From a virus, in IMG/VR virus record IMGVR_UViG_3300022777_000088: a DNA stretch of 28,288 nucleotides. One strand, given 5' to 3'. The notes beneath the pieces are model-generated. The model worked only from the letters and a program-made list of their open reading frames with translations, had not been told where the DNA came from and did not search any database. Position numbers and translations under genes: made by a program. The first letter of the stretch is position 1. Each line of letters begins with the position of its first letter. This document shows positions 3,333-28,237 of this stretch, piece by piece.

Positions 3333-3596
3333 TCGCTTCTCAAGAAAGCAGACTACCCGATTTTTCGCGATGACGAAATCCAGTGGGGAGAGGCGGCGGC
3401 TTCTCTTTTGAGCCTTGAACAGCCAACTTTCAAGTATCTGGACAGTCCGCCGATCAAGCCGGTGAATCGGCTTCTTTCTGTGAACGGGGAAGACTACTCC
3501 CACCGAATGTTTGTAATGTATCTTCTTTCACTCGGCTTCAAAAAGCATGAAGCCGAATACGCTTCGAATCGAAAAAACGCTTTTGGTTATGCCTAG
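3333..3596 (+). CDS. Hypothetical HExxY-motif protein, probably 5'-truncated (first start TTG 3408)
   Basis: Open frame after TAA 3330-3332: SLLKKADYPIFRDDEIQWGEAAAS...LGFKKHEAEYASNRK. Confidence 0.55.
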   Translation, partial: SLLKKADYPIFRDDEIQWGEAAASLLSLEQPTFKYLDSPPIKPVNRLLSVNGEDYSHRMFVMYLLSLGFKKHEAEYASNRKNAFGYA

Positions 3597-3927
3597 CAAC
3601 GATCCACGAGACATTCCTTCAACATATCTTGATTGCTACGCCGACTTCAAAAACCGCGTAGAGAATCGCGACTTGCGTCAAACCAACATCCATAGTTTTC
3701 AGCAAGAGTGGGGAGACACGACTTGCGGACATGGGGGAGTTGGAGGGCAAGCGATTACGCCGTCACAGACCTACGTGTTTGACGTAATGGGCGGGGGTTG
3801 GTACGTGTACCAAGGCGGCCGGTTTTCTTATCATGTCGAGAGGCCGAACGACGAGTTTTTCAACGATTTGCGAAGCTGGAACCTGGTTGGAGAGGTAGAT
3901 TATGAGGGGCAGTATGAACAACCGTAG
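3589..3927 (+). CDS. Conserved phage hypothetical protein
   Basis: 'FQQEWGDTTCGHGGVGGQAIT...VYQGGRFSY' resembles a motif I recall from phage hypotheticals; overlapping start at ATG 3589. Confidence 0.7.
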   Translation: MPSNDPRDIPSTYLDCYADFKNRVENRDLRQTNIHSFQQEWGDTTCGHGGVGGQAITPSQTYVFDVMGGGWYVYQGGRFSYHVERPNDEFFNDLRSWNLVGEVDYEGQYEQP

Positions 3928-4147
3928 CGGAATGCAAGAGTGGATTTCGAATCCGTCGCGACCGAGCTACGGAAATCAAGCCGAAACAGAACCTCTTGCC
4001 GAAAACTTTTGGGGCGCAGGGCAGCTTCAACTGTTTGTAAAGGGACTTCGAAAGCGCGGATTCCAAAAGCACGAGTTGAACTATATCAAAACGAAGGGAC
4101 AACCGAGAGACGAAAACATTGTCGATAAAGTGCTTCACATCCGATGA
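3914..4147 (+). CDS. Small HExxY-motif protein
   Basis: 'LRKRGFQKHELNYIK'; overlaps both neighbours. Confidence 0.65.
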   Translation: MNNRSGMQEWISNPSRPSYGNQAETEPLAENFWGAGQLQLFVKGLRKRGFQKHELNYIKTKGQPRDENIVDKVLHIR

Positions 4148-4302
4148 TTAGCCTTTCAAAAATCAAGAACTACTTTTCGTCGAAGCCGTCAGAGCTTGAA
4201 GAGTTTTGTAATCACGAAAAGTACTACATGCTCAGAAAATCTAGCTCTGAAGAGAAACAGCCGGATATGGCGGAACGAATGAAACAGCTTGCAGGGTTAT
4301 GA
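4144..4302 (+). CDS. Small HExxY-motif protein (52 aa) ending RMKQLAGL
   Basis: Own translation MISLSKIKNYFSSKPSELEEFCNHEKYYMLRKSSSEEKQPDMAERMKQLAGL; ATGA overlaps on both sides. Confidence 0.65.
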   Translation: MISLSKIKNYFSSKPSELEEFCNHEKYYMLRKSSSEEKQPDMAERMKQLAGL

Positions 4303-4433
4303 ATGAGAAAGAGCGAACACTTGAAGCTGTTCGGCGGGCGTGCCACGAAGCCGCAAAAGATATGATGGAGAAGCGGCTGAAGCGGTGGGGGTGCGTCGAA
4401 CATGAAATCAAATACGCACGAAAAAACTTTTGA
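4299..4433 (+). CDS. Small HExxY-motif protein (44 aa)
   Basis: Own translation MNEKERTLEAVRRACHEAAKDMMEKRLKRWGCVEHEIKYARKNF. Confidence 0.65.
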   Translation: MNEKERTLEAVRRACHEAAKDMMEKRLKRWGCVEHEIKYARKNF

Positions 4434-4436
4434 CAT

Positions 4437-4628
4437 ATGAACTTTCGCGACGCCGTGAAAGAATCAGCGGAAAGTCATATGAAGCTGACGAAAGACAATC
4501 TACGTAACATCATTCAGGAAGAGATTCGCGACGTATCTTCTTCCATCGAAGACCTCAAATCTTTTGAGTCACCACCACAGTTTCGAGTCCTCAAGCGGCA
4601 TGAGAGGGTGTACGTGATGGACAATTGA
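4437..4628 (+). CDS. Small HExxY-motif protein with internal MKLTKDNLRNIIQEEI motif
   Basis: 'VLKRHERVYVMDN' at C-terminus; tightly packed with neighbours. Confidence 0.65.
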   Translation: MNFRDAVKESAESHMKLTKDNLRNIIQEEIRDVSSSIEDLKSFESPPQFRVLKRHERVYVMDN

Positions 4629-4696
4629 AACGTCTTTCACTCACAAAGCTGGTTTCGGCTCTATTTATAGGTGAATCAAAGAGCCAAAAACCAGTT

Positions 4697-5023
4697 ATGC
4701 CAGATCAAGAAGAAGACCCTTTCGACACCGCAGACAAGCAGTTCGACACCGTCGACGAGTACCTTGACCGCTTGAAAGACGATCTTGCAGAGAAAGGGTA
4801 CGACGTCGAGTGGGGAGAGCGCATCGAAGAGGACGGAAAAGAAGCCGTCGAGGTAATCCACGAAGGCGCAGTACTCGAAGACCTGCGTGTCCCCGTCAAT
4901 CTTGAGGTCATCAATAAGCAAATGGGGCCTCTCACGGGATACGACATGATGCTTGACACGGTAGAGAGCGCACTTTATTACGACGAGAGCGAAGGAAGCC
5001 TTCCATTTCTCGATCAATCATGA
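4697..5023 (+). CDS. Acidic hypothetical protein
   Basis: ATG 4697 after CTATTTATAG element; D/E-rich. Confidence 0.7.
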   Translation: MPDQEEDPFDTADKQFDTVDEYLDRLKDDLAEKGYDVEWGERIEEDGKEAVEVIHEGAVLEDLRVPVNLEVINKQMGPLTGYDMMLDTVESALYYDESEGSLPFLDQS

Positions 5024-5166
5024 GTAAGATATTCAGCAAGAAGGTGATCAACGTAGAAAAGTTGGAAGAACTCGACGACGGTTTTGACGCCGTACGAATC
5101 ACGTTCGACGACGGAGAAACCGTCGAAGCGGCAGCAAAGTTCATTTTCAAAGATGATGAACTTTGA
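5020..5166 (+). CDS. Small hypothetical protein (48 aa)
   Basis: Own translation MSKIFSKKVINVEKLEELDDGFDAVRITFDDGETVEAAAKFIFKDDEL; ATGA overlap. Confidence 0.6.
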   Translation: MSKIFSKKVINVEKLEELDDGFDAVRITFDDGETVEAAAKFIFKDDEL

Positions 5167-5446
5167 TATGCACGGAGTCGAGTTCAACGACGAAGAGATG
5201 GAGACGATTCGGAGTATCGGCGTCGAAAATGAGGACTATGCAATATGCGCTATATTTGAGAATAGAAACAATGGCGTAGAAGTCGACTACGAAGAAGAGC
5301 GAAAGTTGATTACCGTGAGAGACGGTGAAAACGAAGTCCAGCAAACCGTTCCGATGATTACTGAGGTTTGCGAGTCTTCCGACTCTCTTCAGCGAATCGG
5401 AGTCGGCGTATCGATGCTTGAAGTTGCAGTCAATATCGAAGAATAA
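5153..5446 (+). CDS. Acidic hypothetical protein
   Basis: ORF in operon context; start at ATG 5153, 5156 or 5168. Confidence 0.65.
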   Translation: MMNFDMHGVEFNDEEMETIRSIGVENEDYAICAIFENRNNGVEVDYEEERKLITVRDGENEVQQTVPMITEVCESSDSLQRIGVGVSMLEVAVNIEE

Positions 5447-5658
5447 TGGAAAGATTAGAAGAGCACGACGTCAAGTTTTGCAAGCGCGAAGACGGCCGGA
5501 TCATAGCAAAAATGGAAGATCCGCCGGTCGAAGGTCACGGCGACGACATTGCCGAGGCGCTTGACGACTTGGCGTACGAAATCCGCCAGTTCTCAGAAGG
5601 GGTATGGGAAGCATTTGAACAGTCAATAATATCTTACGACGAAGACTTTCTGGAATAG
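5446..5658 (+). CDS. HicB-like antitoxin domain protein (orphan)
   Basis: 'EDGRIIAKMEDPPVEGHGDDIAEALDDLAYEI' fits the HicB N-terminal pattern (..G-T/D-x-x-EA..L); no HicA nearby. Confidence 0.55.
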   Translation: MERLEEHDVKFCKREDGRIIAKMEDPPVEGHGDDIAEALDDLAYEIRQFSEGVWEAFEQSIISYDEDFLE

Positions 5659-5666
5659 GTTATGAA

Positions 5667-6056
5667 ATGTGGTTATACTTCATGGCGGGAGTTCCGCCAG
5701 TTGCACTTCTTTTATATCTCGCTATGAAAAACGGCTATGTCACATTCGGAATCGGCGGACTTCAGCAGCGTCGAGATCACGACTCGAAAGAGTGGATAAT
5801 CGAAGAATCCATCGTTCCAATCAAGAGTGGAAGTGTGCAGTTTGAAGTCGAAACTGACGTGAAGTGGTGCCCAAGCACGGGAGAGATTTTCTACCGCAAG
5901 CCCAAAGACACTGGTTTCTTCGAGAAAGAGTGGGAAGAGGTTACAGAGTACACAGATCTCTATAAGAAACTTCTCGCGAACTTTCAGCGGAAGTATCAAT
6001 CGCCGCAACGTCGCGGCAACCCAAATAATCGAACTAAATGGACAACAGCATCATAA
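5667..6056 (+). CDS. Membrane-anchored hypothetical protein
   Basis: N-terminal hydrophobic helix 'WLYFMAGVPPVALLLYLAM'. Confidence 0.65.
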   Translation: MWLYFMAGVPPVALLLYLAMKNGYVTFGIGGLQQRRDHDSKEWIIEESIVPIKSGSVQFEVETDVKWCPSTGEIFYRKPKDTGFFEKEWEEVTEYTDLYKKLLANFQRKYQSPQRRGNPNNRTKWTTAS

Positions 6057-6583
6057 TGGAAAACGTAACATCCGAAGCACTCAGCGACTTGGTTATTCAA
6101 CTTTCCGAAGACGGAAAGACGTTGGATACCGATGAACTCGAAGGCTTGGTTGAGGGAGAAGTCGAAAACATGGACGAAGTGCTCGTCTCTTTGGCGAGAA
6201 CGGCCAGAAAGAATGCATTTGCTCCGCACAGCGATTTTCCCGTTGGAGCGGCGCTTCTCACTGAAAAAGGAATATACTTGGGCGGCAACGTTGAAGTAAG
6301 CGGCCGGTCGACGTCGGTTCACGCCGAAATGCTTGCCGCTTACAAGGCAGTGTTTGATGGAGCCCAAGAGTTTCAGGCAATGTCTGTTTCAACTCCACGT
6401 CAAAGCGCAGACACCGGCCCCTGTGGGCTTTGCCAGCACACGTTGAGTCAGTTCACCGACGAGCTTCGGATCATCGAAGATGGTGGAGACGACGACCACG
6501 GCATTTTCTATCTCTCTGAACTTATCGGAGACGGGTACTCCGCATCAACCCGTCATAAAGAATACGTATCTGACACATCATGA
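6038..6583 (+). CDS. cdd: Cytidine deaminase
   Basis: 'AFAPHSDFPVGAALL', 'GGNVE', zinc motifs 'HAE' and 'PCGLC'. Confidence 0.9.
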   Translation: MDNSIIMENVTSEALSDLVIQLSEDGKTLDTDELEGLVEGEVENMDEVLVSLARTARKNAFAPHSDFPVGAALLTEKGIYLGGNVEVSGRSTSVHAEMLAAYKAVFDGAQEFQAMSVSTPRQSADTGPCGLCQHTLSQFTDELRIIEDGGDDDHGIFYLSELIGDGYSASTRHKEYVSDTS

Positions 6584-7329
6584 ACATATACGAACGGTTA
6601 CAAGAAGAAAAGCAGATCGTCGCGTTTTGCGGCAAAAAGCGAAGCGGGAAGGATACGGCAGGAGACGCCATTGCTTCTCACGGCTATTTCCCAATCGCTT
6701 TCGCTGACCCCATCAAAGAGACATGCCAGCTCGTTTTCGAGTTTGACGACGAGCAGGTGTTTGGAGCGAGAAAAGAAGAAGTCGATCCGTTTTGGGACTT
6801 CTCTCCACGGTGGGCGATGCAGACGATTGGCACCGAGCTTTTTCGCGAAGGCATTGACGAAGACGTTTGGGTAAAGTCCTTGCTTGCTCGGATTGACGCG
6901 TCCAGTCACAGCAAGTTTGCCGTGACCGACGTAAGGTTTCCGAATGAAGTGGACCATCTTCAACGTGCAGGAGCGGAGGTGGTCCACATTCGGAGGCCGT
7001 CAAAAGAGCCAGAACTGGACCCGACAAAGAAGTGGTTTGCGCAAAAAGGTGGGATCATCAAAAAAGCGGCTTCGCTTTTCACCGACTTCGGCTCTGAGTA
7101 TCACGCTTCTGAAATCTCTCTCGACAGGCATCCGGTCACTAACAAAGCCGACATTCTGAATGACGGCACGATCGATGAGTTTCGAGTGGCGGTTCGGTTT
7201 TACGTTGAGCAGGTTGAAGAGGGAAACGACGAGTTCGTTGAGCAAGTCCAGCTTTCAGCCAAGTCAATGAACAAAAATGAGCTTCCCGATGGACGGACGG
7301 TTCACGGCGCTAATATGAAGACTGTGTAA
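6580..7329 (+). CDS. Deoxynucleoside monophosphate kinase (T4 gp1-like)
   Basis: P-loop 'GKKRSGKDT', 'FADPIKE', 'PRWAMQTIGTE', 'VTDVRFPNE', 'HASE'. Confidence 0.9.
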   Translation: MNIYERLQEEKQIVAFCGKKRSGKDTAGDAIASHGYFPIAFADPIKETCQLVFEFDDEQVFGARKEEVDPFWDFSPRWAMQTIGTELFREGIDEDVWVKSLLARIDASSHSKFAVTDVRFPNEVDHLQRAGAEVVHIRRPSKEPELDPTKKWFAQKGGIIKKAASLFTDFGSEYHASEISLDRHPVTNKADILNDGTIDEFRVAVRFYVEQVEEGNDEFVEQVQLSAKSMNKNELPDGRTVHGANMKTV

Positions 7330-7375
7330 ATCCATACTTATAGGAAACATCGGTGCCGAAAGTCGGTTATACATA

Positions 7376-7927
7376 ATGCACTATCAACCAACCGACCTTC
7401 CAAAGCAAATGAAACGCAAAGCAAAACAGCTCGCAGAGAAAGCTCACGAAGGACAGCGGAGAAAGTTTGAAGGGCAGGCTTTCGTTGAGCATCCAAAGGC
7501 AGTTGCTTTGCTCGTTCAGAGGGTGACGGACGCAACAGAAGAAATGGTCACGGCTGCTCTTCTTCACGACGTCGTTGAGGACACCGAAGTTGAAATCGGT
7601 GAAATCAAAGACCGTTTTGGAAAGAAGGTCGCGAAGATTGTTCAGTCGCTAACAACCGACAAAGAGAAGCGCGACGAGCTTGGCAAGGCGGCGTACTTGG
7701 GACACAAGATGGCGGGAATGGAAGACAAAACGCTGACAATCAAGCTGTGCGACCGCTATCACAACGTCAAACGCATTGACGAAACCCCCGAGAACTTTCG
7801 GACGCGGTATTCCGCTGAAACGATGGAGACGCTTTCCGTCCTGACCGAACACCGCGATCTGAACAGCACACAGAAGCGCATCGTAAGCGAAATCATCAAG
7901 AAAGTTTCCTGGCATTATGAGCGTTGA
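7376..7927 (+). CDS. HD-domain small alarmone hydrolase, Mesh1/SpoT-hydrolase-like
   Basis: 'AHEGQRRK', 'EHP', 'AALLHDVVEDT', 'IKLCDRYHN'; no synthetase domain. Confidence 0.85.
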   Translation: MHYQPTDLPKQMKRKAKQLAEKAHEGQRRKFEGQAFVEHPKAVALLVQRVTDATEEMVTAALLHDVVEDTEVEIGEIKDRFGKKVAKIVQSLTTDKEKRDELGKAAYLGHKMAGMEDKTLTIKLCDRYHNVKRIDETPENFRTRYSAETMETLSVLTEHRDLNSTQKRIVSEIIKKVSWHYER

Positions 7928-8126
7928 GTCCAGTTTCTTCAAGGACCGTCCGGCGACACGGGAAGAGTTGAGAAACATTCCGAATGAAACGCCCGACGTA
8001 ACAGGATTCACTCAGTTCGAAGACTTGTGTAAGGTCACTGTGGTTGAGTCTTTTGATCATGTTGATCCGAACGGAAATGTCACCGAGCATTCTCACCTGG
8101 AGAACTGGTTCTTTCGATCGAACTGA
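7917..8126 (+). CDS. Hypothetical protein
   Basis: Overlapping ORF in operon. Confidence 0.6.
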   Translation: MSVESSFFKDRPATREELRNIPNETPDVTGFTQFEDLCKVTVVESFDHVDPNGNVTEHSHLENWFFRSN

Positions 8127-8165
8127 TATATAAGGGCCGAACCTCCAAGAAAGTAATCCGGCCAC

Positions 8166-8624
8166 ATGATTCCTGAGATTTCGGGCGTATTTGAGACGAT
8201 TGACTCCTATCGGTACAGCATTACCGTAGGAATCTTGCTTCTTTACTTCGTCCCGATGTTTTTTCCGGTAGGATGGAACGCTGTGAGCGCCACGTGGCAG
8301 TATGCAGCGGCAATCATGTTCTTTCTCGCGGTGGGAATGATTTTGGTTCGCGACGTTTGGCCGCCGGTATATCGGTTGTTCGGAGGCGGGTTTTCGCGAA
8401 CAGAGAAAGATAAGATGGCGACCGCGATTCTTCAAGCAGCGAAAAAGGCTGCGGACGAAGAGAACGGAGAGCCGCCATTCAAGTTCAGCCTTGAAGTTCT
8501 TGACGGCGAGGACGACATTGAAACATACATTGCGCAAGACTTCACCGCCAACGAGTGTTCGATTCAAGATAATCACGTGGTCGTCACCGCCGAAGGACTT
8601 GAAGCGTTGAAGTCACAAATATAG
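8166..8624 (+). CDS. Membrane protein (two TM helices)
   Basis: Two N-terminal hydrophobic segments, acidic soluble C-terminus. Confidence 0.7.
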   Translation: MIPEISGVFETIDSYRYSITVGILLLYFVPMFFPVGWNAVSATWQYAAAIMFFLAVGMILVRDVWPPVYRLFGGGFSRTEKDKMATAILQAAKKAADEENGEPPFKFSLEVLDGEDDIETYIAQDFTANECSIQDNHVVVTAEGLEALKSQI

Positions 8625-8631
8625 AAGAACA

Positions 8632-8705
8632 GGGTCCATAGCTCAGCGGCCTAGAGCGCTTGCTTGACGTGCAAGAGGTCGGAGGTTCGAATCCTCCTGG
8701 ACCCA
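8632..8705 (+). tRNA. tRNA-Val(GAC)
   Basis: Acceptor GGGTCCA/TGGACCC, anticodon arm CTTGC-TTGACGT-GCAAG, T arm GGAGG-TTCGAAT-CCTCC. Confidence 0.95.
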
Positions 8706-8753
8706 CTTTTTGCGCGTAAGTGGTCATATGCGACATGTAAACGCAACTTATTT

Positions 8754-8975
8754 ATTCGAGACATTCTTCCACAAGAAGCCGCTGACGCTTGTGAGCGAGT
8801 GTTTTTCAAGCTTGATGGCGGCGAACCTGATGTCGTAGAAGTATTCATTCGGGCGGGAACAGAAGAAGAACTTGTGAAGAAACTGGAGAAAGCGGAACAG
8901 TTTTCTCCCGACACCGTTGTATTGAACGGTGGTAGAATACGCCCTTTTCAACAGGTTATTGATGTCTACTTATGA
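8754..8975 (+). CDS. Hypothetical protein, paralog of 9550-9861; start codon unclear
   Basis: 'VFFK...EELVKKLEKA..FSPD' aligns with 'VFYK...EELIKKLEIA..AKPD'; no ATG/GTG/TTG in frame between the tRNA and the homologous region. Confidence 0.5.
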   Translation: MRDILPQEAADACERVFFKLDGGEPDVVEVFIRAGTEEELVKKLEKAEQFSPDTVVLNGGRIRPFQQVIDVYL

Positions 8976-9547
8976 CTCAGCACAGGTTCAACGGAACCTT
9001 TGAGTACGAACCCGAATACTCCTGTGACGAAGAAGATCTTGACGGCGTGATGAATGTATTCACAGGTGTTGCTTCAATCACGCCAATCGTTGACTTGACA
9101 CTTGGCGAAGCAAGAGTGGTGGTAGTTTCTGTCCAGCAGCTTCGCTCGAACGACAAAGTGTGCCTCATCCTCAACGCAGAAGACGGCACGAAGTACTTCT
9201 ACAATCCGAAGTACGAAATCCCTTCAAGCAAGAAAGAGCTTGCCGAGACCATGAACGAATGGTCAACAGGTGGGGATAATGTCCGCAAGCGTTCAAATCT
9301 TTGGAAAGAGGCCAACTACATAAAGAACAATACAGATCAAGCTGATTACAAAATCGAACCCGAACCTCTCATTCAACTCGTCGGCGAAGAAGATGTTGGC
9401 GACGAAATGGTTGAGCTTGAGTTCGAGTACGACGACCGGCTTGTTTATGAGGTCGCAGAGTACTACGGCGTCGATCCAGGAGACGTAAACGAGCGGCTCA
9501 TCTCCGATTTCATCACCGTTGCGATTTACAGAGAAGTCAACGAATAA
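8972..9547 (+). CDS. Acidic hypothetical protein
   Basis: 191 aa ORF, ATGA overlap. Confidence 0.75.
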   Translation: MTQHRFNGTFEYEPEYSCDEEDLDGVMNVFTGVASITPIVDLTLGEARVVVVSVQQLRSNDKVCLILNAEDGTKYFYNPKYEIPSSKKELAETMNEWSTGGDNVRKRSNLWKEANYIKNNTDQADYKIEPEPLIQLVGEEDVGDEMVELEFEYDDRLVYEVAEYYGVDPGDVNERLISDFITVAIYREVNE

Positions 9548-9549
9548 CA

Positions 9550-11365: not shown

Positions 11366-11944
11366 ATGGACACGATATTTGCACCAGAATTTCTAGAAAA
11401 CAAAGTCAAATCCAAGTACAAAGAGAAAATCAATCCGACTCATACGTACATTCCGGACTCAACAACGGGAAAGCCGATAGATAATAAAACTTCAATCGGC
11501 CAGAAGCAAACCACCACGCCAAATCCGAGCAAGTGGCCGGTGGATATTGCGAGCGACCCGTTTGTTCAGTCAGTGCTCGACGACCGGAACATTTTCGCTC
11601 AACATGAGCTTGAGTACCTTGACAATAACTGTCCAGACGACATCTTCAACGAGTACGATGAAATGATGCCCATGATGGACGAGTTGGAAAAGAGGATTGA
11701 CGAAGACATTTTCCGGGAGATTCTTGACGAGATCGAAGACGCTGAAAATCCATTTGAGGACCCCGACGACCATCGAGACTGGACGCAAGAGAGGCCGGAT
11801 TGGACGAATCCGGACAGCACTCCTTACATTGGAGACAACTACCAGAAGCTCGACGGAATGTACGAAGAGCAGCGGACTATCGGCATGTTCGAGACCGAAG
11901 AAGAAGTTGAGCAAGCCATAAAGATCATGAACGGCAATGAATGA
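11366..11944 (+). CDS. Acidic hypothetical protein containing HExxY motif
   Basis: 192 aa ORF; 'IFAQHELEYL'. Confidence 0.75.
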   Translation: MDTIFAPEFLENKVKSKYKEKINPTHTYIPDSTTGKPIDNKTSIGQKQTTTPNPSKWPVDIASDPFVQSVLDDRNIFAQHELEYLDNNCPDDIFNEYDEMMPMMDELEKRIDEDIFREILDEIEDAENPFEDPDDHRDWTQERPDWTNPDSTPYIGDNYQKLDGMYEEQRTIGMFETEEEVEQAIKIMNGNE

Positions 11945-14199: not shown

Positions 14200-14313
14200 A
14201 TGTATTCGTTTTTGGCCAAACATGAAGTTGAATACATTGAGTCCAAAGGCGACGACTACGCAAAGCAAGAGTTTGTTGCTGATTGGATAATGCTGCAAAT
14301 AACGGCTCGGTAA
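14200..14313 (+). CDS. HExxY-motif microprotein (37 aa)
   Basis: Own translation MYSFLAKHEVEYIESKGDDYAKQEFVADWIMLQITAR; stop lies within the next tRNA. Confidence 0.55.
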   Translation: MYSFLAKHEVEYIESKGDDYAKQEFVADWIMLQITAR

Positions 14314-14377: not shown

Positions 14378-14527
14378 ATGATAAGCTCAATCGAAGACCG
14401 TGTGAAGTTTGCGATTCCGGTTGCAAAGCTGCTCGCTCAACACGAGATTGATTATGTGAACGACCAGTCGCTTTCGGCGCCGGACCGTTTTCTTTCGAAA
14501 CACGGAACGTACTTGAAAAATGCCTGA
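14378..14527 (+). CDS. HExxY-motif microprotein (49 aa)
   Basis: Own translation MISSIEDRVKFAIPVAKLLAQHEIDYVNDQSLSAPDRFLSKHGTYLKNA. Confidence 0.6.
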   Translation: MISSIEDRVKFAIPVAKLLAQHEIDYVNDQSLSAPDRFLSKHGTYLKNA

Positions 14528-16352: not shown

Positions 16353-16702
16353 TGGATGTTCTCAAGGAAACGTTCTCTGAAAGCAGTCTCGAATCCGATT
16401 CGGTTGAAGAAGAGATTGAGGCTGTAAAAGAGCAGCTTCGCGACACGCAGCCTGCAGACGACATCGATTTTTACATTGACCACGCGGGCGTCGCCGTGAT
16501 GAAGTTCGGCCCGACTCTGAAAGAGGAAATCCCGAGAACAGGATTCGAGAAAGGATCCGACGTGAAGCGGCTGATGCGCAAGCTCGAAGATCTCGCTTAC
16601 GCGAAAGAGCACGGAGAGTTTCCGGAGTCCGCCCCCCGATATACGCTTATCGGTCACGAACCGAACGAGAGAGAGCAAAAGGCCGAAGAGCACAATGTTT
16701 AG
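16352..16702 (+). CDS. Acidic hypothetical protein
   Basis: TAATG coupling. Confidence 0.7.
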   Translation: MDVLKETFSESSLESDSVEEEIEAVKEQLRDTQPADDIDFYIDHAGVAVMKFGPTLKEEIPRTGFEKGSDVKRLMRKLEDLAYAKEHGEFPESAPRYTLIGHEPNEREQKAEEHNV

Positions 16703-17126
16703 TAGTAAACTGAAGAGTTGGAAGAAATATCGAATCCGAAGAGGCTGGCACGAGTGGTTCGCTTGGTATCCAGTTCCTTTGTACGGCGAAACGGGGTTCG
16801 CGTGGTTTCGCACCGTTGAGCGAAAGTATTATCAGACACACGGTTGCACAGCGGTCAAGAAAGGGCTGAACGAAAGTCAAGTCAAGCCTTGGCGTTCGGT
16901 GGACGTGATGTATCGATCGGTCGGGTCAAACGCCGAGAGAACATGTTATATCACGAAAGGTGGGACGCTCTGGCGAGATTCCAAAGAGCTTATGCGGGAG
17001 ATTTCAGATCGAAAATGGGACCGAATCAGCCGTTCTCTTGACGCTCTTGAAAGCCAACAATCCTTCGATCGCGAGAAATTGCAAGCTCATGAACTTGAAT
17101 ATATGAGAGACTGTGGTAAGTTTTGA
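16695..17126 (+). CDS. Hypothetical protein with WFAWxPV motif and C-terminal HExxY
   Basis: 'WHEWFAWYPV..FAWFRTVERK'; 'KLQAHELEYMR'. Confidence 0.7.
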   Translation: MFSSKLKSWKKYRIRRGWHEWFAWYPVPLYGETGFAWFRTVERKYYQTHGCTAVKKGLNESQVKPWRSVDVMYRSVGSNAERTCYITKGGTLWRDSKELMREISDRKWDRISRSLDALESQQSFDREKLQAHELEYMRDCGKF

Positions 17127-17779: not shown

Positions 17780-17791
17780 GTTCTTTGACAT
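17780..17791 (+). promoter_or_regulatory. boxA-like antitermination site
   Basis: GTTCTTTGACAT ~30 nt after the promoter; similar sites at 18763 and 19237. Confidence 0.55.
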
Positions 17792-17797
17792 GCGAAA

Positions 17798-18669
17798 AAA
17801 GGCAGTAGGTCCGAGCAAGGGACAGGACCGAAAGCTGGAAACAGGTCTCCGTTAAGGATGGTTCGAATCCATTTTAGCCTTTGAGCCCTCTCTGGCAACG
17901 GGACTGGACGGTTCGAATCCGTAAGCAAAACGATCAAACTGCTGGTTTCGTGCTGGCGAGCTGGCAACTCTTGTTCTTGTTTTGACTTGATAAAGGACGG
18001 TTAGATTCCGTTCTGCAAGAACAAGATAAGGGGACTAGCCTAAATCGAAATGGCTCATAATTCCATTGACGCCCACTACGAAACACGCGCCATCGGACAT
18101 ACAGCTTTCAAAAATGTCCGATTTCTTTTGCCTTAGAAGGGTGAAGAGAGAGGTTACTGAAGCCACGGGCATTAGCACCGTGAGTTGAAACCCTCTATAA
18201 AAAGACTGATGCCGGGCTGATCGGGAAGCCGCCATCGACGCGGTTTTATGGTCAGGTTCAACTTCCACCCAGCTCGGCTGGCCCGTTGCGGCCTACCGTC
18301 GTCGTTTCGTCAGAAGAAAAGTGACCGTCGCCTGATCAGCGACACGGAGCGGATTGGACGGCGAAACGACGGCTCGCAAACGCAACTTATATAGGCTCCG
18401 AACTTGGCGGTCTCACAGACTACGGTTCGAATCCGTTTTCATGGATCATAAAGAGGGTTCAAGTCCCTCCGAGCCTACAAACCAGGTTCACGCCTACTGT
18501 GAAGGGTTTCCCAAGCATATGGTTGGCACTGCTCAAAAGTCAGACGGGGTTCGAATCCCAAGTGAGCTGTTCGCGGACGGTTCCGTGAACCAACGCTTTG
18601 CTTTTTCGCGAACACGTTTTCCGAAATGAAGTTTGAAGGATACTGGAACCAAGGCGGGGCTTCAAATTT
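17798..18669 (+). ncRNA. Large structured non-coding region / array of T-loop-containing RNA modules
   Basis: No credible ORF; seven T-loop-like motifs, most in hairpins; consecutive long closing stems; driven by a strong promoter and boxA-like site. Confidence 0.75.
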
Positions 18670-18695: not shown

Positions 18696-18739
18696 GTTTG
18701 ACATCGGGCTTGCGCTTCCCTACATTGGGTAGTGCGATA
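18696..18739 (+). promoter_or_regulatory. sigma70 promoter, copy 1 of a 44-bp direct repeat
   Basis: TTGACA(18698)-17 nt-TACATT(18721); 43/44 identical to 19091-19134. Confidence 0.85.
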
Positions 18740-18865
18740 CTTGGGGAGAGAGAAAAACGAAATGTTCTTTGACTTTGTGGGATACGACAACGGAGCGGAA
18801 GGTTGACTACCGATACGCTGCCGTTGGTGCCGACGCGTCTAGTCAGCGCTTCAGGCTGTCAAGCG

Positions 18866-18942
18866 AACCCGTTAGCTCAGTTCGGTAGAGCGCCCGTGCT
18901 TATGCGCGGGGTCGGTCGTCGGTTCAAATCCTTCACGGGTTT
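18866..18942 (+). pseudogene. Aberrant tRNA (non-7-nt anticodon loop, mismatched T stem)
   Basis: AACCCGT/ACGGGTT, normal D arm; CCCGTGC-TTAT-GCGCGGG; T stem GTCGG/CCTTC with two mismatches. Confidence 0.65.
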
Positions 18943-18947
18943 GCACG

Positions 18948-19050
18948 CTGCCATTAGCTCAAGTTGGTAGAGCGGCGTCATTGAAGGCGTGAACCCAAAG
19001 CATGGTGTCTTTGGGTTTAGTTGTTGCGGGTTCAAATCCCGCATGGCAGT
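18948..19050 (+). ncRNA. Aberrant class-II-like tRNA (6-nt loop ATTGAA, very long variable arm); Ser(TGA)-like?
   Basis: CTGCCAT/ATGGCAG; GCGTC-ATTGAA-GGCGT; variable arm GAACCCAAAG...CTTTGGGTTT; GCGGG-TTCAAAT-CCCGC. Confidence 0.65.
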
Positions 19051-19090
19051 TTTTTCAATCCCACATTCTTTTGTGAAGAAAAAATAAGCC

Positions 19091-19134
19091 GTTTGACATT
19101 GGGCTTGCGCTTCCCTACATTGGGTAGTGCGATA
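19091..19134 (+). promoter_or_regulatory. sigma70 promoter, copy 2 of the 44-bp direct repeat
   Basis: TTGACA(19093)-17 nt-TACATT(19116). Confidence 0.85.
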
Positions 19135-19154
19135 GAAGGAAAGAAAAAACATAC

Positions 19155-19229
19155 AGGTCCGCAGTTCAGTTTGGAGTGAACGCTTCCCTGTCACGGAAGA
19201 GATCGCGGGTTCAAATCCCGTCGGATCTG
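19155..19229 (+). tRNA. tRNA-Asp(GTC)
   Basis: AGGTCCG/CGGATCT, G73; CTTCC-CTGTCAC-GGAAG; C instead of U at position 8. Confidence 0.92.
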
Positions 19230-19249
19230 CAATCTATGTTCTTTACTTT

Positions 19250-19389
19250 GCGGTCGTGTGGCGAGCAATCGGCAATCGCCGTCATTACCAAAGTCGTTAG
19301 CTACGGCGTTTGGCGTCAAATCGGATAGCCTCCGAAAACACATGTGACCTAGCGGCTCATGTGTGCGGGTTCAAGTCCCGCCGTCCGCG
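19250..19389 (+). ncRNA. Expanded tRNA-like RNA with three UAGC-loop hairpins
   Basis: Acceptor GCGGTCG/CGTCCGC, D-like arm GGCGA/TCGCC, T arm GCGGG-TTCAAGT-CCCGC; three internal hairpins with TAGC loops. Confidence 0.7.
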
Positions 19390-19456
19390 CATTGACATTA
19401 CGGTGCCTCCGTAGAGCCCGCGCGTTTCTTCTTTTCAAGCACAAAAGCAGTAATTA

Positions 19457-20875: not shown

Positions 20876-20889
20876 TTTGGAAACATGTT

Positions 20890-21024
20890 TTGGGTACTAT
20901 CGCGATCTTCGCTTTTCTGAAAAAGTTGGCCTTCGTGAAGCGAAGAACAAGCTTGTGCCTGAGTGACGCCGAAACGCGCTTTTTCAGGCATGAGAAGATG
21001 TACGGTCAAAAACGACTCACTTGA
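20890..21024 (+). CDS. Putative HExxY-motif microprotein (44 aa, TTG start)
   Basis: Own translation (M)GTIAIFAFLKKLAFVKRRTSLCLSDAETRFFRHEKMYGQKRLT. Confidence 0.4.
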   Translation: MGTIAIFAFLKKLAFVKRRTSLCLSDAETRFFRHEKMYGQKRLT

Positions 21025-22119: not shown

Positions 22120-22125
22120 CTACAT

Positions 22126-22199: not shown

Positions 22200-22221
22200 C
22201 GATAAAGAAAGTGTGAACTGT

Positions 22222-22250
22222 TTGACATTGTTCATTGTTTGTATTAGATT
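22222..22250 (+). promoter_or_regulatory. sigma70-type promoter
   Basis: TTGACA-17 nt-TAGATT. Confidence 0.75.
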
Positions 22251-22256
22251 GCCTAT

Positions 22257-22375
22257 TGGAAAGTGAGTTGGGGATAGCCGGAAATCGCCGCTCGCGAGTA
22301 CAAGAGTCGCCGCTGCAGGGACTCTCAAAAGAAGAGCAGAGCATCGGGGATAGCTTCCACGATGAGCGCTTTCCA
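22257..22375 (+). ncRNA. Candidate small structured RNA with GGATAGC motifs
   Basis: Closing stem TGGAAAGTG/CGCTTTCCA begins at the predicted TSS; GGATAGC twice, TCGCCGCT twice. Confidence 0.5.
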
Positions 22376-22397
22376 GCGCTATATCAAATAGGAACCA

Positions 22398-22472
22398 CGG
22401 GACGTAGCTCAGTCTGGTCAGAGCCCCGATCTGATACGTCGGTAGTCGGTGGTTCAAATCCATCCGTCCCGA
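22398..22472 (+). tRNA. tRNA-Ile(GAT)
   Basis: CGGGACG/CGTCCCG, A73; CCGAT-CTGATAC-GTCGG. Confidence 0.9.
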
Positions 22473-22506
22473 CTTCTTTTCTGTTCTATTGAGGCTTCTC
22501 AGGCTA

Positions 22507-22743
22507 ATGATGACAAAAGAAAACGCCGAAACGTTTGTCCATAACATCAATGAGGCATTTTCGAGTACAGATCACGTGAAAGCGTGGTCGGAAGTTCATG
22601 GTCAAAGTGAAGCGGAAGTCGTTGTGCAAGTAGATTATGAGGAACAGCAGCGGCTTCATCTTCAAAGTGATCATCAAGCACTGGCTGTTTTCCAGTTAAT
22701 CTATGCGGCAAAGAAAGAGGGACTGCACGACGGTTTGACATAG
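22507..22743 (+). CDS. Hypothetical protein
   Basis: ATG 22507/22510. Confidence 0.6.
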   Translation: MMTKENAETFVHNINEAFSSTDHVKAWSEVHGQSEAEVVVQVDYEEQQRLHLQSDHQALAVFQLIYAAKKEGLHDGLT

Positions 22744-22938
22744 AAATACAAAGAGAAAATCAAAGACAACTTGCCCTTTTGAAGCTGCCGCAAGAGTTTG
22801 ACCGTATATGCGAATCTCTATCACGAAAGCCAATCCCGATAGAGGAAGTGTTGCGGCGAAGTGCGGTAACTGTGGATGAAGGATGGAAGGTCATTTTGTT
22901 ATCATCGCTACACGGGCGGTGTTTGTTTTCTCGTATAT

Positions 22939-23011
22939 GGGGGTATAGCTCAGTCGGTAGAGCACCTGTTTTGCACGCAGGCGGTCAAGAGTTCGAATCT
23001 CTTTACCTCCA
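22939..23011 (+). tRNA. tRNA-Ala(TGC), canonical
   Basis: GGGGGTA/TACCTCC with G3:U70, A73; CCTGT-TTTGCAC-GCAGG. Confidence 0.95.
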
Positions 23012-23104
23012 CTACGTAGGCATTTCAGTTCTTGTCTACTTTGTCGCCCTTTGGCGATACACTCTTGCGAGAAGCAGTCTTGAATCAAAAATAACAACAT
23101 AAGA

Positions 23105-26100
23105 ATGGATACACACAACTTTTCATATAGAACCCTGTTGATGGCCATGAGTTTTCTCATGGTCTTTTCTATTGTGGGCGCAACGTCGGCAATGGGACAG
23201 GTCACGAACGCTCGTGTATCGGGAACAGTGGTGGATGAGAACTCCAAGGCACTGCCCGGAGCGAACGTCGTGATGGTTCACCGTCCAACAGGTACAGAAT
23301 ATGGCACGGTGACGGAGACAGACGGAAATTTCAATTTTGGTAACGTTCGTGTCGGTGGTCCCTACGTGATTGAAGTATCATTTGTGGGATATCGATCAGA
23401 ACGTGAAACTGGATTCCAACTCGATCTCGGTGAAAACCGAACCTTTGAGTTTCAACTGGAATCGAAAACTGAAAAACTTGGAGAGGTAACAGTTGAAGCT
23501 GAAGAAGGATTATTCAGTGAAGATCGACAGGGAATCAAAACTAACATTGATCAAGAGGCAATCGAAACTGCTCCGACGATGGACCGTCAGGTTGCAGACT
23601 TTGCTCGTCTTACTCCACAAGCAATTGTGGGAAATGACGATGATGACGGTTCAAGTATTTCTATCGCTGGACAAAACAACCGATACAACTCGCTTTTCAT
23701 TGATGGAGCGGTTGCGAATGACGTGTTCGGTTTATCTGCACAGGGAACAGATGGTGGACAAACCGGAGCAAGTCCGATTAGCATCGACGCAATTGAGCAG
23801 TTCGATGTTGAAGTTTCTCCATATGACGTAACGCAAAGTTACTTTGGAGGTGGGGCGATCAACGCAGTTACGAAAAGTGGAAGTAATGAGTTTGAAGGTT
23901 CTTTCACTTACGAAACTCGTAACGAAACAGTCTCCGAAGACCTTCCAGAGTTCACAAATAATCGTTACGTCGGAAATGTAAGTGGACCGATTATTGAAGA
24001 TGAACTGTTCTTCTTCGCAAACTTTGATATCAATCGAGAAGAGAGTCCTCAACCCTTCGAAGGCGGTTTTGATGGGTTTCAGGGTGACGCAATCTCTTCC
24101 TCGCAGGACTTGAATGAGTTTGTGAGCTTCCTTGACCAGACCACTGGATTTGATCCAGGTGAAATCAGAGGTCAGCAAACGACTCTTGACAGCGAGAAGT
24201 TTCTTATTCGGCTTGACTGGAATATCAACCAGGATCACAAGCTCATGACCAGGTATAGCCGATCTAATTCGGAAAACGTTGATGCGTTTGGAGGAAGTCC
24301 TACAAATCTTACGTTTTCCAGTCAAAACGAGATATTTCCGAACACGACGCATATTTTTGCGACGGAGTTGAATAGTTCATTCGGAAATCGTTTTGCGAAC
24401 TCCCTTACGTTCTCGTTCAAAAGAGTGAAGGACAATCGGGGAACGAACATCAACAGTAATTTTCCGACTGTGAGTATTACAGATGGTGGAGCAGATGTGA
24501 ACTTTGGCGCAGAGCCGTTTTCTACGGTCAATCTGCTCAAACAAAATGTCATGACAGCTACAAATGACTTTGATATTTATGCTGGTGATCATACCATTAC
24601 GGTAGGAACCCACCAGGAGTTCTTTGATATCACAAATAAGTTCGTTCCATTCAATAACGGTTGGCACATTTTCTTCGATACCAACGATAATGGAACGGGG
24701 ATCGACGAATTCAAACAAACGGTCTGCGCTTCCCCTCAAGTTGACAGAAGCAGCGTTGATGAGTGTTCAAAGTTTCCGAATCGGCCAGCATTCAACGTCT
24801 TTGCGCGTGGATTTTCGCTTCAAGACGACAATCCAAATACTCCTGGATTTGAGGAAACGCTTGGAGACGCTACGAATGCGCAGGGAGCTTTCAACTCGCT
24901 TAACTCTAGCTTCTACATTCAAGACGAGTGGAAGGCAAGTGACCGCTTGACCTTGACTGGTGGATTGCGAGTTGACATTCCATTCTACTTGGATGATCCA
25001 GCGTTTCCGAATCCAAACAATCCACTTTCGCCAGACGATCCAAAGATCAATCCGAAAACGACGACCATTCCAGCTATCAAGAGCATAACGGAAAATGGTC
25101 GCCAATTTCATGATCTTGAAGGCGCAAGAGTGGGAGAAACGCCAAGTCCAAATCCACACATTGCTCCTCGCTTTGGGTTCAATGTGGATCTGCAAGAAGA
25201 GTATGATACGCAGATTCGTGGTGGAACGGGAGTTTTCACGTCTCGACAACCTCTCGTTTGGCCGGGTGGAATGTACTTAAACAACGGAATGAACACAGGA
25301 ACGATTGACTTTGCGTTCGGTCGAAATGAGTTCCGACCGAATCCGGGAGAAGGAAGTGTGGCTACAAGACCACAGTTTGAGGGGCGAAGCCCTTCGGAGC
25401 TTATTCCAAGTGGACGACTTGAAATTTTTGCGGAAGATTACAAGAACCCTCGTTTCTGGCGATCTTCTCTCGCAATCGATCATGAGCTTCCGGGTGGCGT
25501 AACTGCTACGCTTGAAGGACAATTCACTGAAACTATGACGAACATCGCAGTTCGGAATGTGAATTTGCGTCCACCGAATGAGACGACAGACGGCCCGGCG
25601 CAGCGGCCAATCTGGGTTCCTTCTCAGTTTGAACAGCGTGGGGAGTTTGGCGCTGCTGGAGACCAGAGAGTTGATAGCCGATTCTCTAATATCAACGTCG
25701 TAAGCAATACCAGTGAAGGTTATTCTTATGACGTGACTGCCCGATTCCAAAAGACGTTTCAGAATCTAACGGAATCTACGTCGCTTGAGACAGATTTCTC
25801 CTATACGTTCGGTGACTCTTACAGTGAGAACGATGGACTTAGTTCTCAAATTAACAGCGTATGGGAAGGTCCTGAAAATGTAAATGGACTCAACGATCCC
25901 GGCGTCGCGAGAAGTGACTTTTCAATTGGTCATCGGTTTCTTGTGCGTGCGGGAGTTCGCCAAGAGATTAGTGAAAATGTCAATAGCACAGTTTCGCTCA
26001 TTTACGATGGACAATCTGGACGGCCATTTTCCTACGTGATTGGAGGAAGTGACCGAATGGTTCGTGAGCGCGGTGAACCACGTTCTCTTTTCTTCGTTCC

Positions 26101-26647
26101 TGAGGACGCTTCTCAGCTTTCGTTTGCTGAAACACAGATCAATGGAGTGACCGTTACTCCCGAGCATCAAGCAAACGCATTGGACCAGTTTATTTCAGAG
26201 AACGAAACTCTTTCTGAAAAGCGTGGACAGTTCACTGCCAGAAACGATGACCGAACTCCATTTGAAGGCGTGGTTGACCTTCAAACAAACGTGGAGCTAA
26301 CTCATGACATTCTTGGTCGTGATCAAAGCGTGGAGCTTACTGCTCATGTCTTCAATTTCAGTTCACTTCTGGGTGATGCGCTTGGCACCGATTGGGGACA
26401 GCGGTTTATTGGCTTCAGTCGGGTCCAACCGACCGAATTCCAGAGGTTCAAAGACGCTGAAAATGGAGACTTTACGCCAGTCTTTACTGCTCCAAGAGTT
26501 ATCGGTAGCGTTGAAGATACAAACGGCGACGGTGTTGCTGAAAACGTTGAAACACTGGAGCAAGGTGAACTCTTTACCGAACGAACAACTGGCAGTTCGT
26601 TTAGCTCCCAGTGGCAAGTCAAATTCGGTGTTACCTATAACTTCTAA
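23105..26647 (+). CDS. TonB-dependent outer-membrane receptor, Oar-like, with N-terminal carboxypeptidase-regulatory-like domain
   Basis: Signal peptide; 'SGTVVDENSKALPGANV'; plug 'IDGAVAND..SIDAIEQF..GGAINAVTKSGSNEF'; 'YIQDEW..LTLTGGLRVD'; C-terminal BAM signal 'FGVTYNF'. Confidence 0.92.
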   Translation: MDTHNFSYRTLLMAMSFLMVFSIVGATSAMGQVTNARVSGTVVDENSKALPGANVVMVHRPTGTEYGTVTETDGNFNFGNVRVGGPYVIEVSFVGYRSERETGFQLDLGENRTFEFQLESKTEKLGEVTVEAEEGLFSEDRQGIKTNIDQEAIETAPTMDRQVADFARLTPQAIVGNDDDDGSSISIAGQNNRYNSLFIDGAVANDVFGLSAQGTDGGQTGASPISIDAIEQFDVEVSPYDVTQSYFGGGAINAVTKSGSNEFEGSFTYETRNETVSEDLPEFTNNRYVGNVSGPIIEDELFFFANFDINREESPQPFEGGFDGFQGDAISSSQDLNEFVSFLDQTTGFDPGEIRGQQTTLDSEKFLIRLDWNINQDHKLMTRYSRSNSENVDAFGGSPTNLTFSSQNEIFPNTTHIFATELNSSFGNRFANSLTFSFKRVKDNRGTNINSNFPTVSITDGGADVNFGAEPFSTVNLLKQNVMTATNDFDIYAGDHTITVGTHQEFFDITNKFVPFNNGWHIFFDTNDNGTGIDEFKQTVCASPQVDRSSVDECSKFPNRPAFNVFARGFSLQDDNPNTPGFEETLGDATNAQGAFNSLNSSFYIQDEWKASDRLTLTGGLRVDIPFYLDDPAFPNPNNPLSPDDPKINPKTTTIPAIKSITENGRQFHDLEGARVGETPSPNPHIAPRFGFNVDLQEEYDTQIRGGTGVFTSRQPLVWPGGMYLNNGMNTGTIDFAFGRNEFRPNPGEGSVATRPQFEGRSPSELIPSGRLEIFAEDYKNPRFWRSSLAIDHELPGGVTATLEGQFTETMTNIAVRNVNLRPPNETTDGPAQRPIWVPSQFEQRGEFGAAGDQRVDSRFSNINVVSNTSEGYSYDVTARFQKTFQNLTESTSLETDFSYTFGDSYSENDGLSSQINSVWEGPENVNGLNDPGVARSDFSIGHRFLVRAGVRQEISENVNSTVSLIYDGQSGRPFSYVIGGSDRMVRERGEPRSLFFVPEDASQLSFAETQINGVTVTPEHQANALDQFISENETLSEKRGQFTARNDDRTPFEGVVDLQTNVELTHDILGRDQSVELTAHVFNFSSLLGDALGTDWGQRFIGFSRVQPTEFQRFKDAENGDFTPVFTAPRVIGSVEDTNGDGVAENVETLEQGELFTERTTGSSFSSQWQVKFGVTYNF

Positions 26648-26668
26648 GTGAAATTATTATAAAAAACG

Positions 26669-26700
26669 CAGGTGGTGGGGATCGCGATCCCCACCACCTG
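26669..26700. terminator. Perfect 32-bp palindrome, probable terminator
   Basis: CAGGTGGTGGGGATCGCGATCCCCACCACCTG equals its own reverse complement; A-run upstream. Confidence 0.7.
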
Positions 26701-26724
26701 GCGTTGAATTATTGATTTGTTGAT

Positions 26725-27018
26725 ATGCCTCTTTGGTTAAAACAAATAATCGGTTGGTTTGAACGTTCAAAGTACAGTTGGGCTTGTGAGCGTTGTGGCC
26801 GCAAAACAGTTTTGAGACGCACTGTCAATTTAGAAAGTGGAATATTCGCGACGAATATAGGTGCTCTTTGCTGGCAGTGTTGGAATGAAAGTAATTGCAT
26901 CGAAAGGTATATTTATCAAAAAAGGTACTTCAAGCATGAACTCAAGCACAAAGCGCTTTCTGAGAAAATGAAGCGGAAAGTGCTTATCAAAGTGCTGAAA
27001 AATGAAGTTGGGACCTAG
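26725..27018 (+). CDS. Putative zinc-finger protein
   Basis: 'CERC' and 'CWQC'; HELKH variant of the HExxY motif. Confidence 0.6.
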   Translation: MPLWLKQIIGWFERSKYSWACERCGRKTVLRRTVNLESGIFATNIGALCWQCWNESNCIERYIYQKRYFKHELKHKALSEKMKRKVLIKVLKNEVGT

Positions 27019-27037
27019 TAGCTCCAAGGGTAGAGCG
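27010..27037 (+). pseudogene. Orphan 5' fragment (acceptor strand + D arm) of tRNA-Ala
   Basis: GGGACCTAGTA-GCTC-CAAGGGTA-GAGC-G; shares TTGGGACCTAGTAG with the start of the tRNA at 27424. Confidence 0.75.
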
Positions 27038-27040
27038 CTT

Positions 27041-27448
27041 ATGAAACAAGATAGAAAAGGAAGCATATCAGAAACTCGTGTAAAAGCTGAGTATATGGAA
27101 AGAGGGTATAATGTTTTGGTCCCTGAAAATGATGGACTCAGATATGACATCGTTGTAGAAAGAAAGGGTGAGTTCAAAAGAGTTCAAGTAAAAACTGCTG
27201 ACTGGAAAGATGAAAACAGCTTCATACTCAGGTGTTATTCTTCTGAAAATCATAGAGTTTACACAAATGATGAAATAGATTGTTTTGCTCTCTTCGATCA
27301 CAAAGAAGAAACCGTTTATGAAGTTCCGGTAGAAAAAACACCAAAAACTCAAATGAAGTTTAGAGTTTCAGAAACTAAGAACGGACAAGTGAAAAACGTG
27401 AACAGAGCGAAAGATTACGTTTTGGGACCTAGTAGTTCTAATCGGTAG
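27041..27448 (+). CDS. PD-(D/E)XK homing endonuclease (group I intron-associated/PDDEXK_5-like)
   Basis: 'KGSISE..GYNVLVPENDGLRYDIVVE..FKRVQVKT..YTNDEIDCFA'; AT-rich. Confidence 0.85.
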   Translation: MKQDRKGSISETRVKAEYMERGYNVLVPENDGLRYDIVVERKGEFKRVQVKTADWKDENSFILRCYSSENHRVYTNDEIDCFALFDHKEETVYEVPVEKTPKTQMKFRVSETKNGQVKNVNRAKDYVLGPSSSNR

Positions 27449-27499
27449 AACGTCGGTATGGCATACCGAAGGTTGCGGGTTCGAGTCCCGCCGGTTCCA
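27424..27499 (+). tRNA. tRNA-Ala(GGC) with 2-nt bulge in acceptor stem
   Basis: GGGACC-[TA]-G / CGGTTCC, G3:U70, A73; TCGGT-ATGGCAT-ACCGA; GCGGG-TTCGAGT-CCCGC. Confidence 0.85.
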
Positions 27500-27501
27500 C
27501 A

Positions 27502-27594
27502 ATGACAATCCTTTTTTTGGCAGCCATTTTGCTTCACGTCGGAGGAATCGCGGCGTGTCTTCTCATGTATATTCTTCTTCGAAGGTCTGAATAA
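27502..27594 (+). CDS. 30-aa single-TM peptide
   Basis: Own translation MTILFLAAILLHVGGIAACLLMYILLRRSE. Confidence 0.5.
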   Translation: MTILFLAAILLHVGGIAACLLMYILLRRSE

Positions 27595-27612
27595 TCTAAT
27601 CATAAAATCAAT

Positions 27613-27792
27613 ATGCATTTTGCCGAGAGAGAACGGATAGACGGAGACAAAATTGAAAGTATCGAAGACGTTCAAAAAATTATTGATGCGTTAGACATTC
27701 GGGTTGCTCCAGACCACGATTACTATGAAGACTTGAAACCGTTTTTGAGTGAAATTCCAGAGGAAGAAAAAACAAATATAACTTTTGATTGA
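27613..27792 (+). CDS. Small acidic hypothetical protein (59 aa)
   Basis: Own translation MHFAERERIDGDKIESIEDVQKIIDALDIRVAPDHDYYEDLKPFLSEIPEEEKTNITFD. Confidence 0.6.
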   Translation: MHFAERERIDGDKIESIEDVQKIIDALDIRVAPDHDYYEDLKPFLSEIPEEEKTNITFD

Positions 27793-27795
27793 AAT

Positions 27796-28020
27796 ATGAA
27801 CCATTACGCTATACGAGATCCACGAAACGGAAAATACTGCGCAAAGGGTGGGCGAAATAGTAGAGGAACCCATGAAGAGCCGCATGATTTGTTTTATGGC
27901 AAAGGTGGCGTCAAATCGTCAATCTCCCAAAAGAAGCGATATGGGTTCGACCCTGCAGATGAATATGAAATCATTCCCGTGGATGTATCGGTGAACGAAG
28001 ATGAGGTTGAAACGTACTGA
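27796..28020 (+). CDS. Hypothetical protein
   Basis: 'YAIRDPRNGKY' phage-type N-terminus. Confidence 0.65.
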   Translation: MNHYAIRDPRNGKYCAKGGRNSRGTHEEPHDLFYGKGGVKSSISQKKRYGFDPADEYEIIPVDVSVNEDEVETY

Positions 28021-28237
28021 AAACCAGCACGAGCGTTTGTATGCAAACAGAAATTTTCGCGCCCTCGAATTGGTTGCCGCGATAAGGCGGCAGATCTTGT
28101 TCTATACAAAGAAACAAGAGAGTCCACAAAGCACAAAGATGAACGGGACTTTGTGGGTTCGGTCGGTGATGCAACCAGAATTCCGAGTGCTGCTTCACAT
28201 TTTATTCATGGAACGGCGGTTGGTTGAGAGTGTTTAA
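28001..28237 (+). CDS. Hypothetical protein with HExxY motif
   Basis: 'ENQHERLYANRN'; overlaps previous gene. Confidence 0.45.
   Translation: MRLKRTENQHERLYANRNFRALELVAAIRRQILFYTKKQESPQSTKMNGTLWVRSVMQPEFRVLLHILFMERRLVESV

Follow-up and report, generated by a model that had tools for sequence, protein, structure and literature searches.

The subject of this report is a motif, HExxY, in the 28,288-nucleotide stretch of virus record IMGVR_UViG_3300022777_000088, the whole of which is called the window here. A first-pass annotation had described a dispersed family of small proteins sharing this motif, with Phe or Leu three residues before the His (position -3), as a short helical signal for one shared partner. 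Nine plus-strand genes, designated carriers A to I, contain it in frame. Five of these are found among six consecutive open reading frames (ORFs) at 3507-4628, as had been claimed: A (3507..3596, 29 amino acids (aa), or 62 aa if started at TTG 3408; FKKHEAEYA, His codon at 3546), B (3914..4147, 77 aa, isoelectric point (pI) 9.8; FQKHELNYI, His 4070), C (4144..4302, 52 aa; FCNHEKYYM, His 4213), D (4299..4433, 44 aa; CVEHEIKYA, His 4401, with five residues beyond the Tyr), and E (4437..4628, 63 aa; LKRHERVYV, His 4599, with four residues beyond the Tyr). Further along lie F (11366..11944, 192 aa, acidic), in which FAQHELEYL is internal (His 11603), G (14200..14313, 37 aa), with a near-N-terminal LAKHEVEYI (His 14221), H (14378..14527, 49 aa; LAQHEIDYV, His 14441), and I (16695..17126, 143 aa, pI 9.7), which ends in a C-terminal LQAHELEYM (His 17088).

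Seven of the nine carriers are shorter than 80 aa. The His stands at residues 14, 53, 24, 35, 55, 80, 8, 22, and 132 of A to I, respectively, and 4 to 108 residues follow the Tyr. The pI exceeded 7 in five of nine carriers and in 5 of 33 genes of the proteome (p 0.023, length not controlled). When the nine carriers or carrier segments were aligned, only His, Glu, and Tyr were invariant and the mean column identity was 23%. The earlier view of the carriers as otherwise unalike needs one exception: H resembles one half of P0014, a zinc-ribbon protein from a relative. Since this was the only similarity seen beyond the motif, a single paralogous protein family was rejected.

The enrichment of the motif was examined in a hand-curated tiling of 56 plus-strand genes (7728 aa). 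HExxY occurred in frame nine times against an expectation of 0.65, and none of 5000 within-protein shuffles reached nine, which bears out the excess over shuffled sequence that the motif had been predicted to show. It was also the top three-residue gapped motif, with an equal score in 1 of 1417 shuffled proteomes after correction for the choice of the best motif. At the nucleotide level, CAYGAR-N6-TAY was present 11 times on the plus strand and once on the minus strand (Markov expectation about 1, maximum 4 in 200), and the same pattern with other gaps of 0-12 nucleotides occurred 0-4 times. A DNA site had been named as the alternative should the pattern be equally common out of frame or on the minus strand; this was not the case, two of the 11 plus-strand matches falling outside a coding frame.

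The twelve peptides originally listed all translate as given at their His codons, but only nine were retained as true sites. Coding frames were scored in bits per codon, the 33 genes used for training having a mean of 0.31 and a minimum of 0.10, and a motif matrix was built solely from the nine window sites. The frames of FFRHEKMY (20980..21003, plus strand, His 20989) and ENQHERLY (28019..28042, plus strand, His 28028, lacking Phe or Leu at -3) scored as non-coding (-0.24 and -0.08 bits per codon), their ORFs were absent from the protein collection, and their matrix scores (8.5 and 8.7) were at background. The variant at 26926..26949 on the same strand (FKHELKH, His 26935) lacks the Tyr and did not come within the top 20 matrix scores. 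Carrier A is the weakest of the nine (0.04 bits per codon, ORF absent from the protein collection), and its His-Glu codons lie inside a 9-bp hairpin (z -2.98). Phe or Leu at -3, present in eight of nine window sites, is not mandatory, as Ser replaces it in homologues P0021 and P0022. The residue after the Tyr is Ile, Leu, Val, Met, or Ala at all nine sites. Neither of these two positions was used in choosing the sites, and yet both are biased. In leave-one-out scoring, six sites reached 18.7-21.3 and those at 4213, 4401, and 4599 just 6.5-9.6; the nine comprise a tight class of six and a looser three (C, D, and E).

A conserved non-coding block led to three sister-phage contigs, L005-L007, and this block, together with a deaminase, is also common to the window and the 484-kb phage LR756508.1. 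When the sister contigs were scored with the window-trained matrix, three sites ranked first (19.1, 16.6, and 15.2; next 7.0), all of them above the maximum of 12.1 in 100 kb of the 484-kb relative. One of the three belongs to a syntenic orthologue of F (FKNHELRYL; 31% identity overall), and the other two are in the L006 and L007 versions of one zinc-ribbon gene that is absent from the window.

Ten homologues were collected blind to the motif. Six of them have the exact HExxY (P0012, the L006 orthologue of F, P0017, P0008, P0021, and P0022, with little weight on P0008 and P0017, both close mates within a cluster), and two retain Glu and Tyr with the His changed to Tyr or Trp (P0011 and P0023). 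In the remaining two, P0024 and the orthologue of I in L006/L007, the segment is missing. Four further homologues were found via the motif itself, namely P0014, P0015, and two zinc-ribbon genes. In eight pairs, four of them motif-found, the His, Glu, and Tyr of the motif were kept at 23 of 24 pair positions, compared with 44 of 112 for other His, Glu, and Tyr residues. The homologues of B retain the motif as FRNHELNYI and FQKHELDYI, and F-x-x-[HY]-E-L-x-Y-L is retained in three homologues of F. For C, one contig of run X1 matches only positions 4191-4238, 48 bases that span the motif, and run X2 had no variants across the motifs of A-E. The tail of I is found in three of five more distant homologues (in one as WEFKY) and is missing in two, a pattern compatible with gain or with loss, and its motif persists despite an indel immediately upstream. 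H, which stands alone in the window, forms the C-terminal half of the zinc-ribbon protein P0014 (32 of 46 residues identical, 70%); zinc ribbons of the P0014 type in L006 and L007 have more diverged tails that still bear the motif. G and H are absent from the syntenic place in L006. The motif occurs at N-terminal, C-terminal, or internal positions and with or without a preceding zinc ribbon.

The motif is genuine and is under selection at the protein level. The zinc-ribbon pair of L006 and L007 differs in residue at 24 of 38 C-terminal codons, and within its motif the His codon is identical and the Glu, Arg, Tyr, and Ile codons differ silently only. DNA look-alikes that change a residue were not enriched (QExxY 2, HDxxY 1, and HExx-stop 0, vs 11), and no RNA fold was common to the nine sites, two of which fold better than shuffles, in different registers. 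These three results support the protein-level selection proposed initially.

A helical state of the motif, likewise proposed, is predicted by the model of P0014 (mean predicted local distance difference test score, pLDDT, 77.6; four sequences), in which the motif lies within helix 45-69. The model of F is unreliable (mean pLDDT 48.8) and is helical at the motif too. By ideal-helix arithmetic, position -3, the His, the Glu, the Tyr, and position +5 share one 140-degree face. In three homologues of I a Pro stands at -1, and A, B, and D have a Gly turn, which suggests that the His-Glu often opens the helix. The PDB sequence search gave no matches, Foldseek found none at E 0.001, and the best VIA-align hits (Z 6.1) were generic helical hairpins. 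Pfam, NCBIfam, and PADLOC returned no family for the window carriers. Atlas had no usable match for H and gave zinc-ribbon-like leads under 0.9 for P0014. Matches in PHROGs were only weak; that of F to the virion structural protein phrog_9863 (E 0.0008, residues 83-132) begins at the end of the motif, covers a mostly acidic helix, and was not relied on.

The range of the motif is narrow. In LR756508.1 it is at background (17 forward and 9 reverse occurrences, about 1 per 28 kb). Scans of IMG/VR for relatives yielded one distant RNA-ligase locus without the motif and nothing else, and those of GTDB and of a metagenome were empty. A profile of the nine carriers, run against 1.84 billion proteins, found no outside family; its hits were five proteins of the window itself and the repetitive ORF P0020, which lacks HExxY and was dropped. 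In 61 Rhodothermales genomes, no host protein recurred with the motif among 30 loci inspected, which included one related-protein pair; weak matches came from 28 of the 61 (best E 0.10). Since the motif is at background in the large relative, has no outside family, and recurs in no host protein, it is a lineage-specific trait with no evident copying of a host motif. 'HExxY' was not described in the literature searched, subscription papers and supplements being outside the search.

As to function, we see roughly an even chance that HExxY is a portable, short helical docking label that brings unlike, fast-changing small proteins to one shared partner. The unlike bodies, the kept polar-aromatic face, the free position, and the gain or loss of tails fit such a label, and we infer from them a single partner. 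The motif helix would dock the carriers on a phage-encoded hub. The prohead core would be the first-choice hub, in which case a rotating set of payload proteins would be packaged and then injected; this version tentatively takes the larger part of that even chance, and another phage hub takes the rest. A possible form of the idea, also tentative, is that the lineage has an address code of its own that is independent of position: an HExxY helix of nine residues, open to grafting onto either end or into the middle of any protein. One phage-encoded receptor would then read it and would direct dozens of rapidly swapped effector microproteins to the virion or to one site in the infected cell.

As a precedent, the capsid-targeting sequence of phage T4 comes closest. 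As described in PMC9026906, IPI, IPII, and IPIII, which are internal proteins, bear this sequence, the loading of varied proteins into heads by it has been proposed, and the signal consists of the opening 10 residues of a propeptide that lies at the N-terminus and is removed by gp21. The likeness would lie in one short peptide on small, often basic, and otherwise divergent phage proteins. In the window, however, the His is at residues 8 to 132, mostly nearer to the C-terminus, and the sequence is another one. A T4-type signal within the first 10 residues or so was therefore rejected, the motif being near-N-terminal just in G and perhaps in A; HExxY lacks the N-terminal placement by which the T4 signal is defined and would at most work like it. 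Encapsulation peptides of bacterial microcompartments are helical, are found at either end, and follow an amphipathic pattern with no known invariant H-E-Y triad. They too are short peptides on unrelated cargo read by one shell, as set out in PMC11157265 and PMC4594438, although their setting is cellular and not that of a phage. In Bacillus phage G, a zinc ribbon of about 35 copies is reported as a lineage-specific expansion of jumbo phages (PMC7824862). That case likewise has many small genes in one lineage, and some carriers of the window's relatives are zinc ribbons; there, however, a whole domain has been multiplied, whereas the carriers here share just about nine residues on differing bodies.

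Several observations weigh against the docking label. No partner of the motif was found, and it is not N-terminal as the T4 targeting sequences are. Two homologues have Tyr or Trp in place of the His, and two have Ser in place of the Phe or Leu at -3. In none of the eight pairs did the nine-residue motif window rank as the best-conserved stretch (ranks 3-33), and the flanks in F are kept as well (12 and 13 of 20 residues in two pairs), as in a small folded core. C, D, and E fit the other six carriers poorly in the leave-one-out matrix, and no homologue was found for A, D, E, or G.

Some of these findings would also be expected if the motif were the core of one very small ancestral helical module, since duplicated, fused, and decayed, and were kept for folding or self-association with no common outside partner. 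The tails of H and of the zinc ribbons align past the motif, the flanks in F and the ranking of the motif window point the same way, and A, B, and D share an L-x-x-x-G-[FC]-x-x-x-E turn that is also present in the RecX of the host. We nevertheless hold this to be unlikely, because the polar His and Glu are kept in differing contexts (after a Gly turn, in mid-helix, and after a Pro), the nine-carrier profile found no outside family, and the motif of I is a short tail with just seven residues beyond the Tyr. The likeness to the helix-turn-helix corner of RecX is local, between one Rhodothermales RecX (LRERGFSDHETNYV) and carrier B (LRKRGFQKHELNYI). RecX itself was rejected: HExxY occurs in 1 of 30 orthologues, and the nine window carriers have no NCBIfam or Pfam match, matching neither the RecX hidden Markov model nor its three-repeat length.

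Somewhat less probable still is a reading in which the motif binds a host complex (a polymerase, a protease adaptor, or a defence protein) or acts as a decoy for it, the carriers being host-takeover or counter-defence proteins. The carriers are indeed short, clustered, and swapped among sister phages in a region of tRNA and nucleotide-metabolism genes. However, the searches of the 61 genomes gave no recurring host protein, HExxY in the RecX look-alike is confined to one of 30 orthologues, the window carriers belong to no PADLOC, NCBIfam, or Pfam family, and the host is itself one that we infer.

We consider it improbable that the motif is a chemical site, with the Tyr modified or cleaved by one enzyme or with His, Glu, and Tyr as a metal half-site. 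Glu and Tyr are kept in all eight motif-blind homologues that have the segment, all three residues are known as iron ligands, and the register resembles the HExxH of zincins and peptide deformylase with the second His replaced. A His that can be replaced by Tyr or Trp would be a poor metal ligand, however, and no modifying enzyme was among the Pfam matches of the window; HExxH itself was rejected, the second His ligand, at +4, being replaced by Tyr in nine of nine carriers. A DNA or RNA site (promoter, terminator, or restriction site) or chance is largely refuted and very improbable, for in spite of the two out-of-frame matches, the hairpin in A, and the one equally enriched shuffle, codon change in the sister pair is silent only, look-alikes are not enriched, conservation is neither frame-independent nor at the base level, no fold is shared, and the sister-phage sites were found out of sample.

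If one partner reads the docking label, a single peptide pull-down would tie dozens of orphan microproteins to one process. The label would, if true, reveal the way in which a shifting repertoire of small effectors is directed by large phages, and, working from any position, it would stand apart from the T4 signal, which is N-terminal and cleaved. In addition, the motif flags which tiny ORFs of the lineage are real genes.

The recorded source of the window's proteins is a 134,161-base contig. The window has 15-16 tRNA genes, and its Pfam matches include an intein-split RNA ligase, homing endonucleases, a deaminase, a dNMP kinase, and a TonB-dependent receptor; it contains no head genes. Its proteins are acidic overall, with a median pI of 4.7 in 33 genes. 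The gene at 23105-26647 (plus strand) encodes a full-length, 1180-aa TonB-dependent receptor, in a phage, and no similar gene was found in the named phages searched; its best match among the 80 loci kept from a pattern-seeded, non-exhaustive search was in a Rhodothermales genome (44%). The source would be an uncultured large phage, likely from salt water, and the acidic proteome and this match point to a halophilic host of the Rhodothermota or Bacteroidota. It was rejected as one of the isolated Salinibacter viruses, for which PMC5776456 gives a span of 35-53 kb.

Carriers G (14200) and H (14378) each begin at the base after a tRNA-Phe gene, so tRNA processing could yield leaderless messages there. 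No sigma-70 promoter is common to the carriers. The RNA ligase (691-2879, plus strand) is intein-split, with a stand-alone, 346-aa endonuclease-like ORF (1198-2238) between its halves. A LAGLIDADG endonuclease on the opposite strand (2853-3503, minus) directly precedes the motif cluster. In L006 (reverse strand), endonuclease-like ORFs at 3588-4394 and 5228-5998 fill the sites between tRNAs that small genes take up in the window.

The non-coding block, of about 700 nucleotides and without a convincing gene, is located at 17780-18480 (plus strand), with a second block at 18700-19390. It is 73-79% identical to LR756508.1 and to L005-L007, sits downstream of a TTGACT-17-TATAAT promoter match, and lies in a region that has, from 17860 to 18548, five T-loop-like GGTTCRANTCC motifs. 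No Rfam family fitted it, and its folding z-scores were modest (-0.4 to -3.1). Lying in a tRNA island, a context described for the GOLLD and ROOL RNAs in 10.1101/2024.12.08.627333, the block is a candidate for an undescribed large phage RNA. A promoter-like unit, TTGACA-17-TACATT, is repeated at 18698 and 19093 ahead of tRNA blocks, and a weak YrlA-like match was found at 18895-19007 (E 0.005). A 29-aa ORF with a good codon score (20877-20966, plus strand) has the C-terminal end GLREAKNKLVPE, which may resemble the C-terminal helix of ribosomal protein L7/L12.

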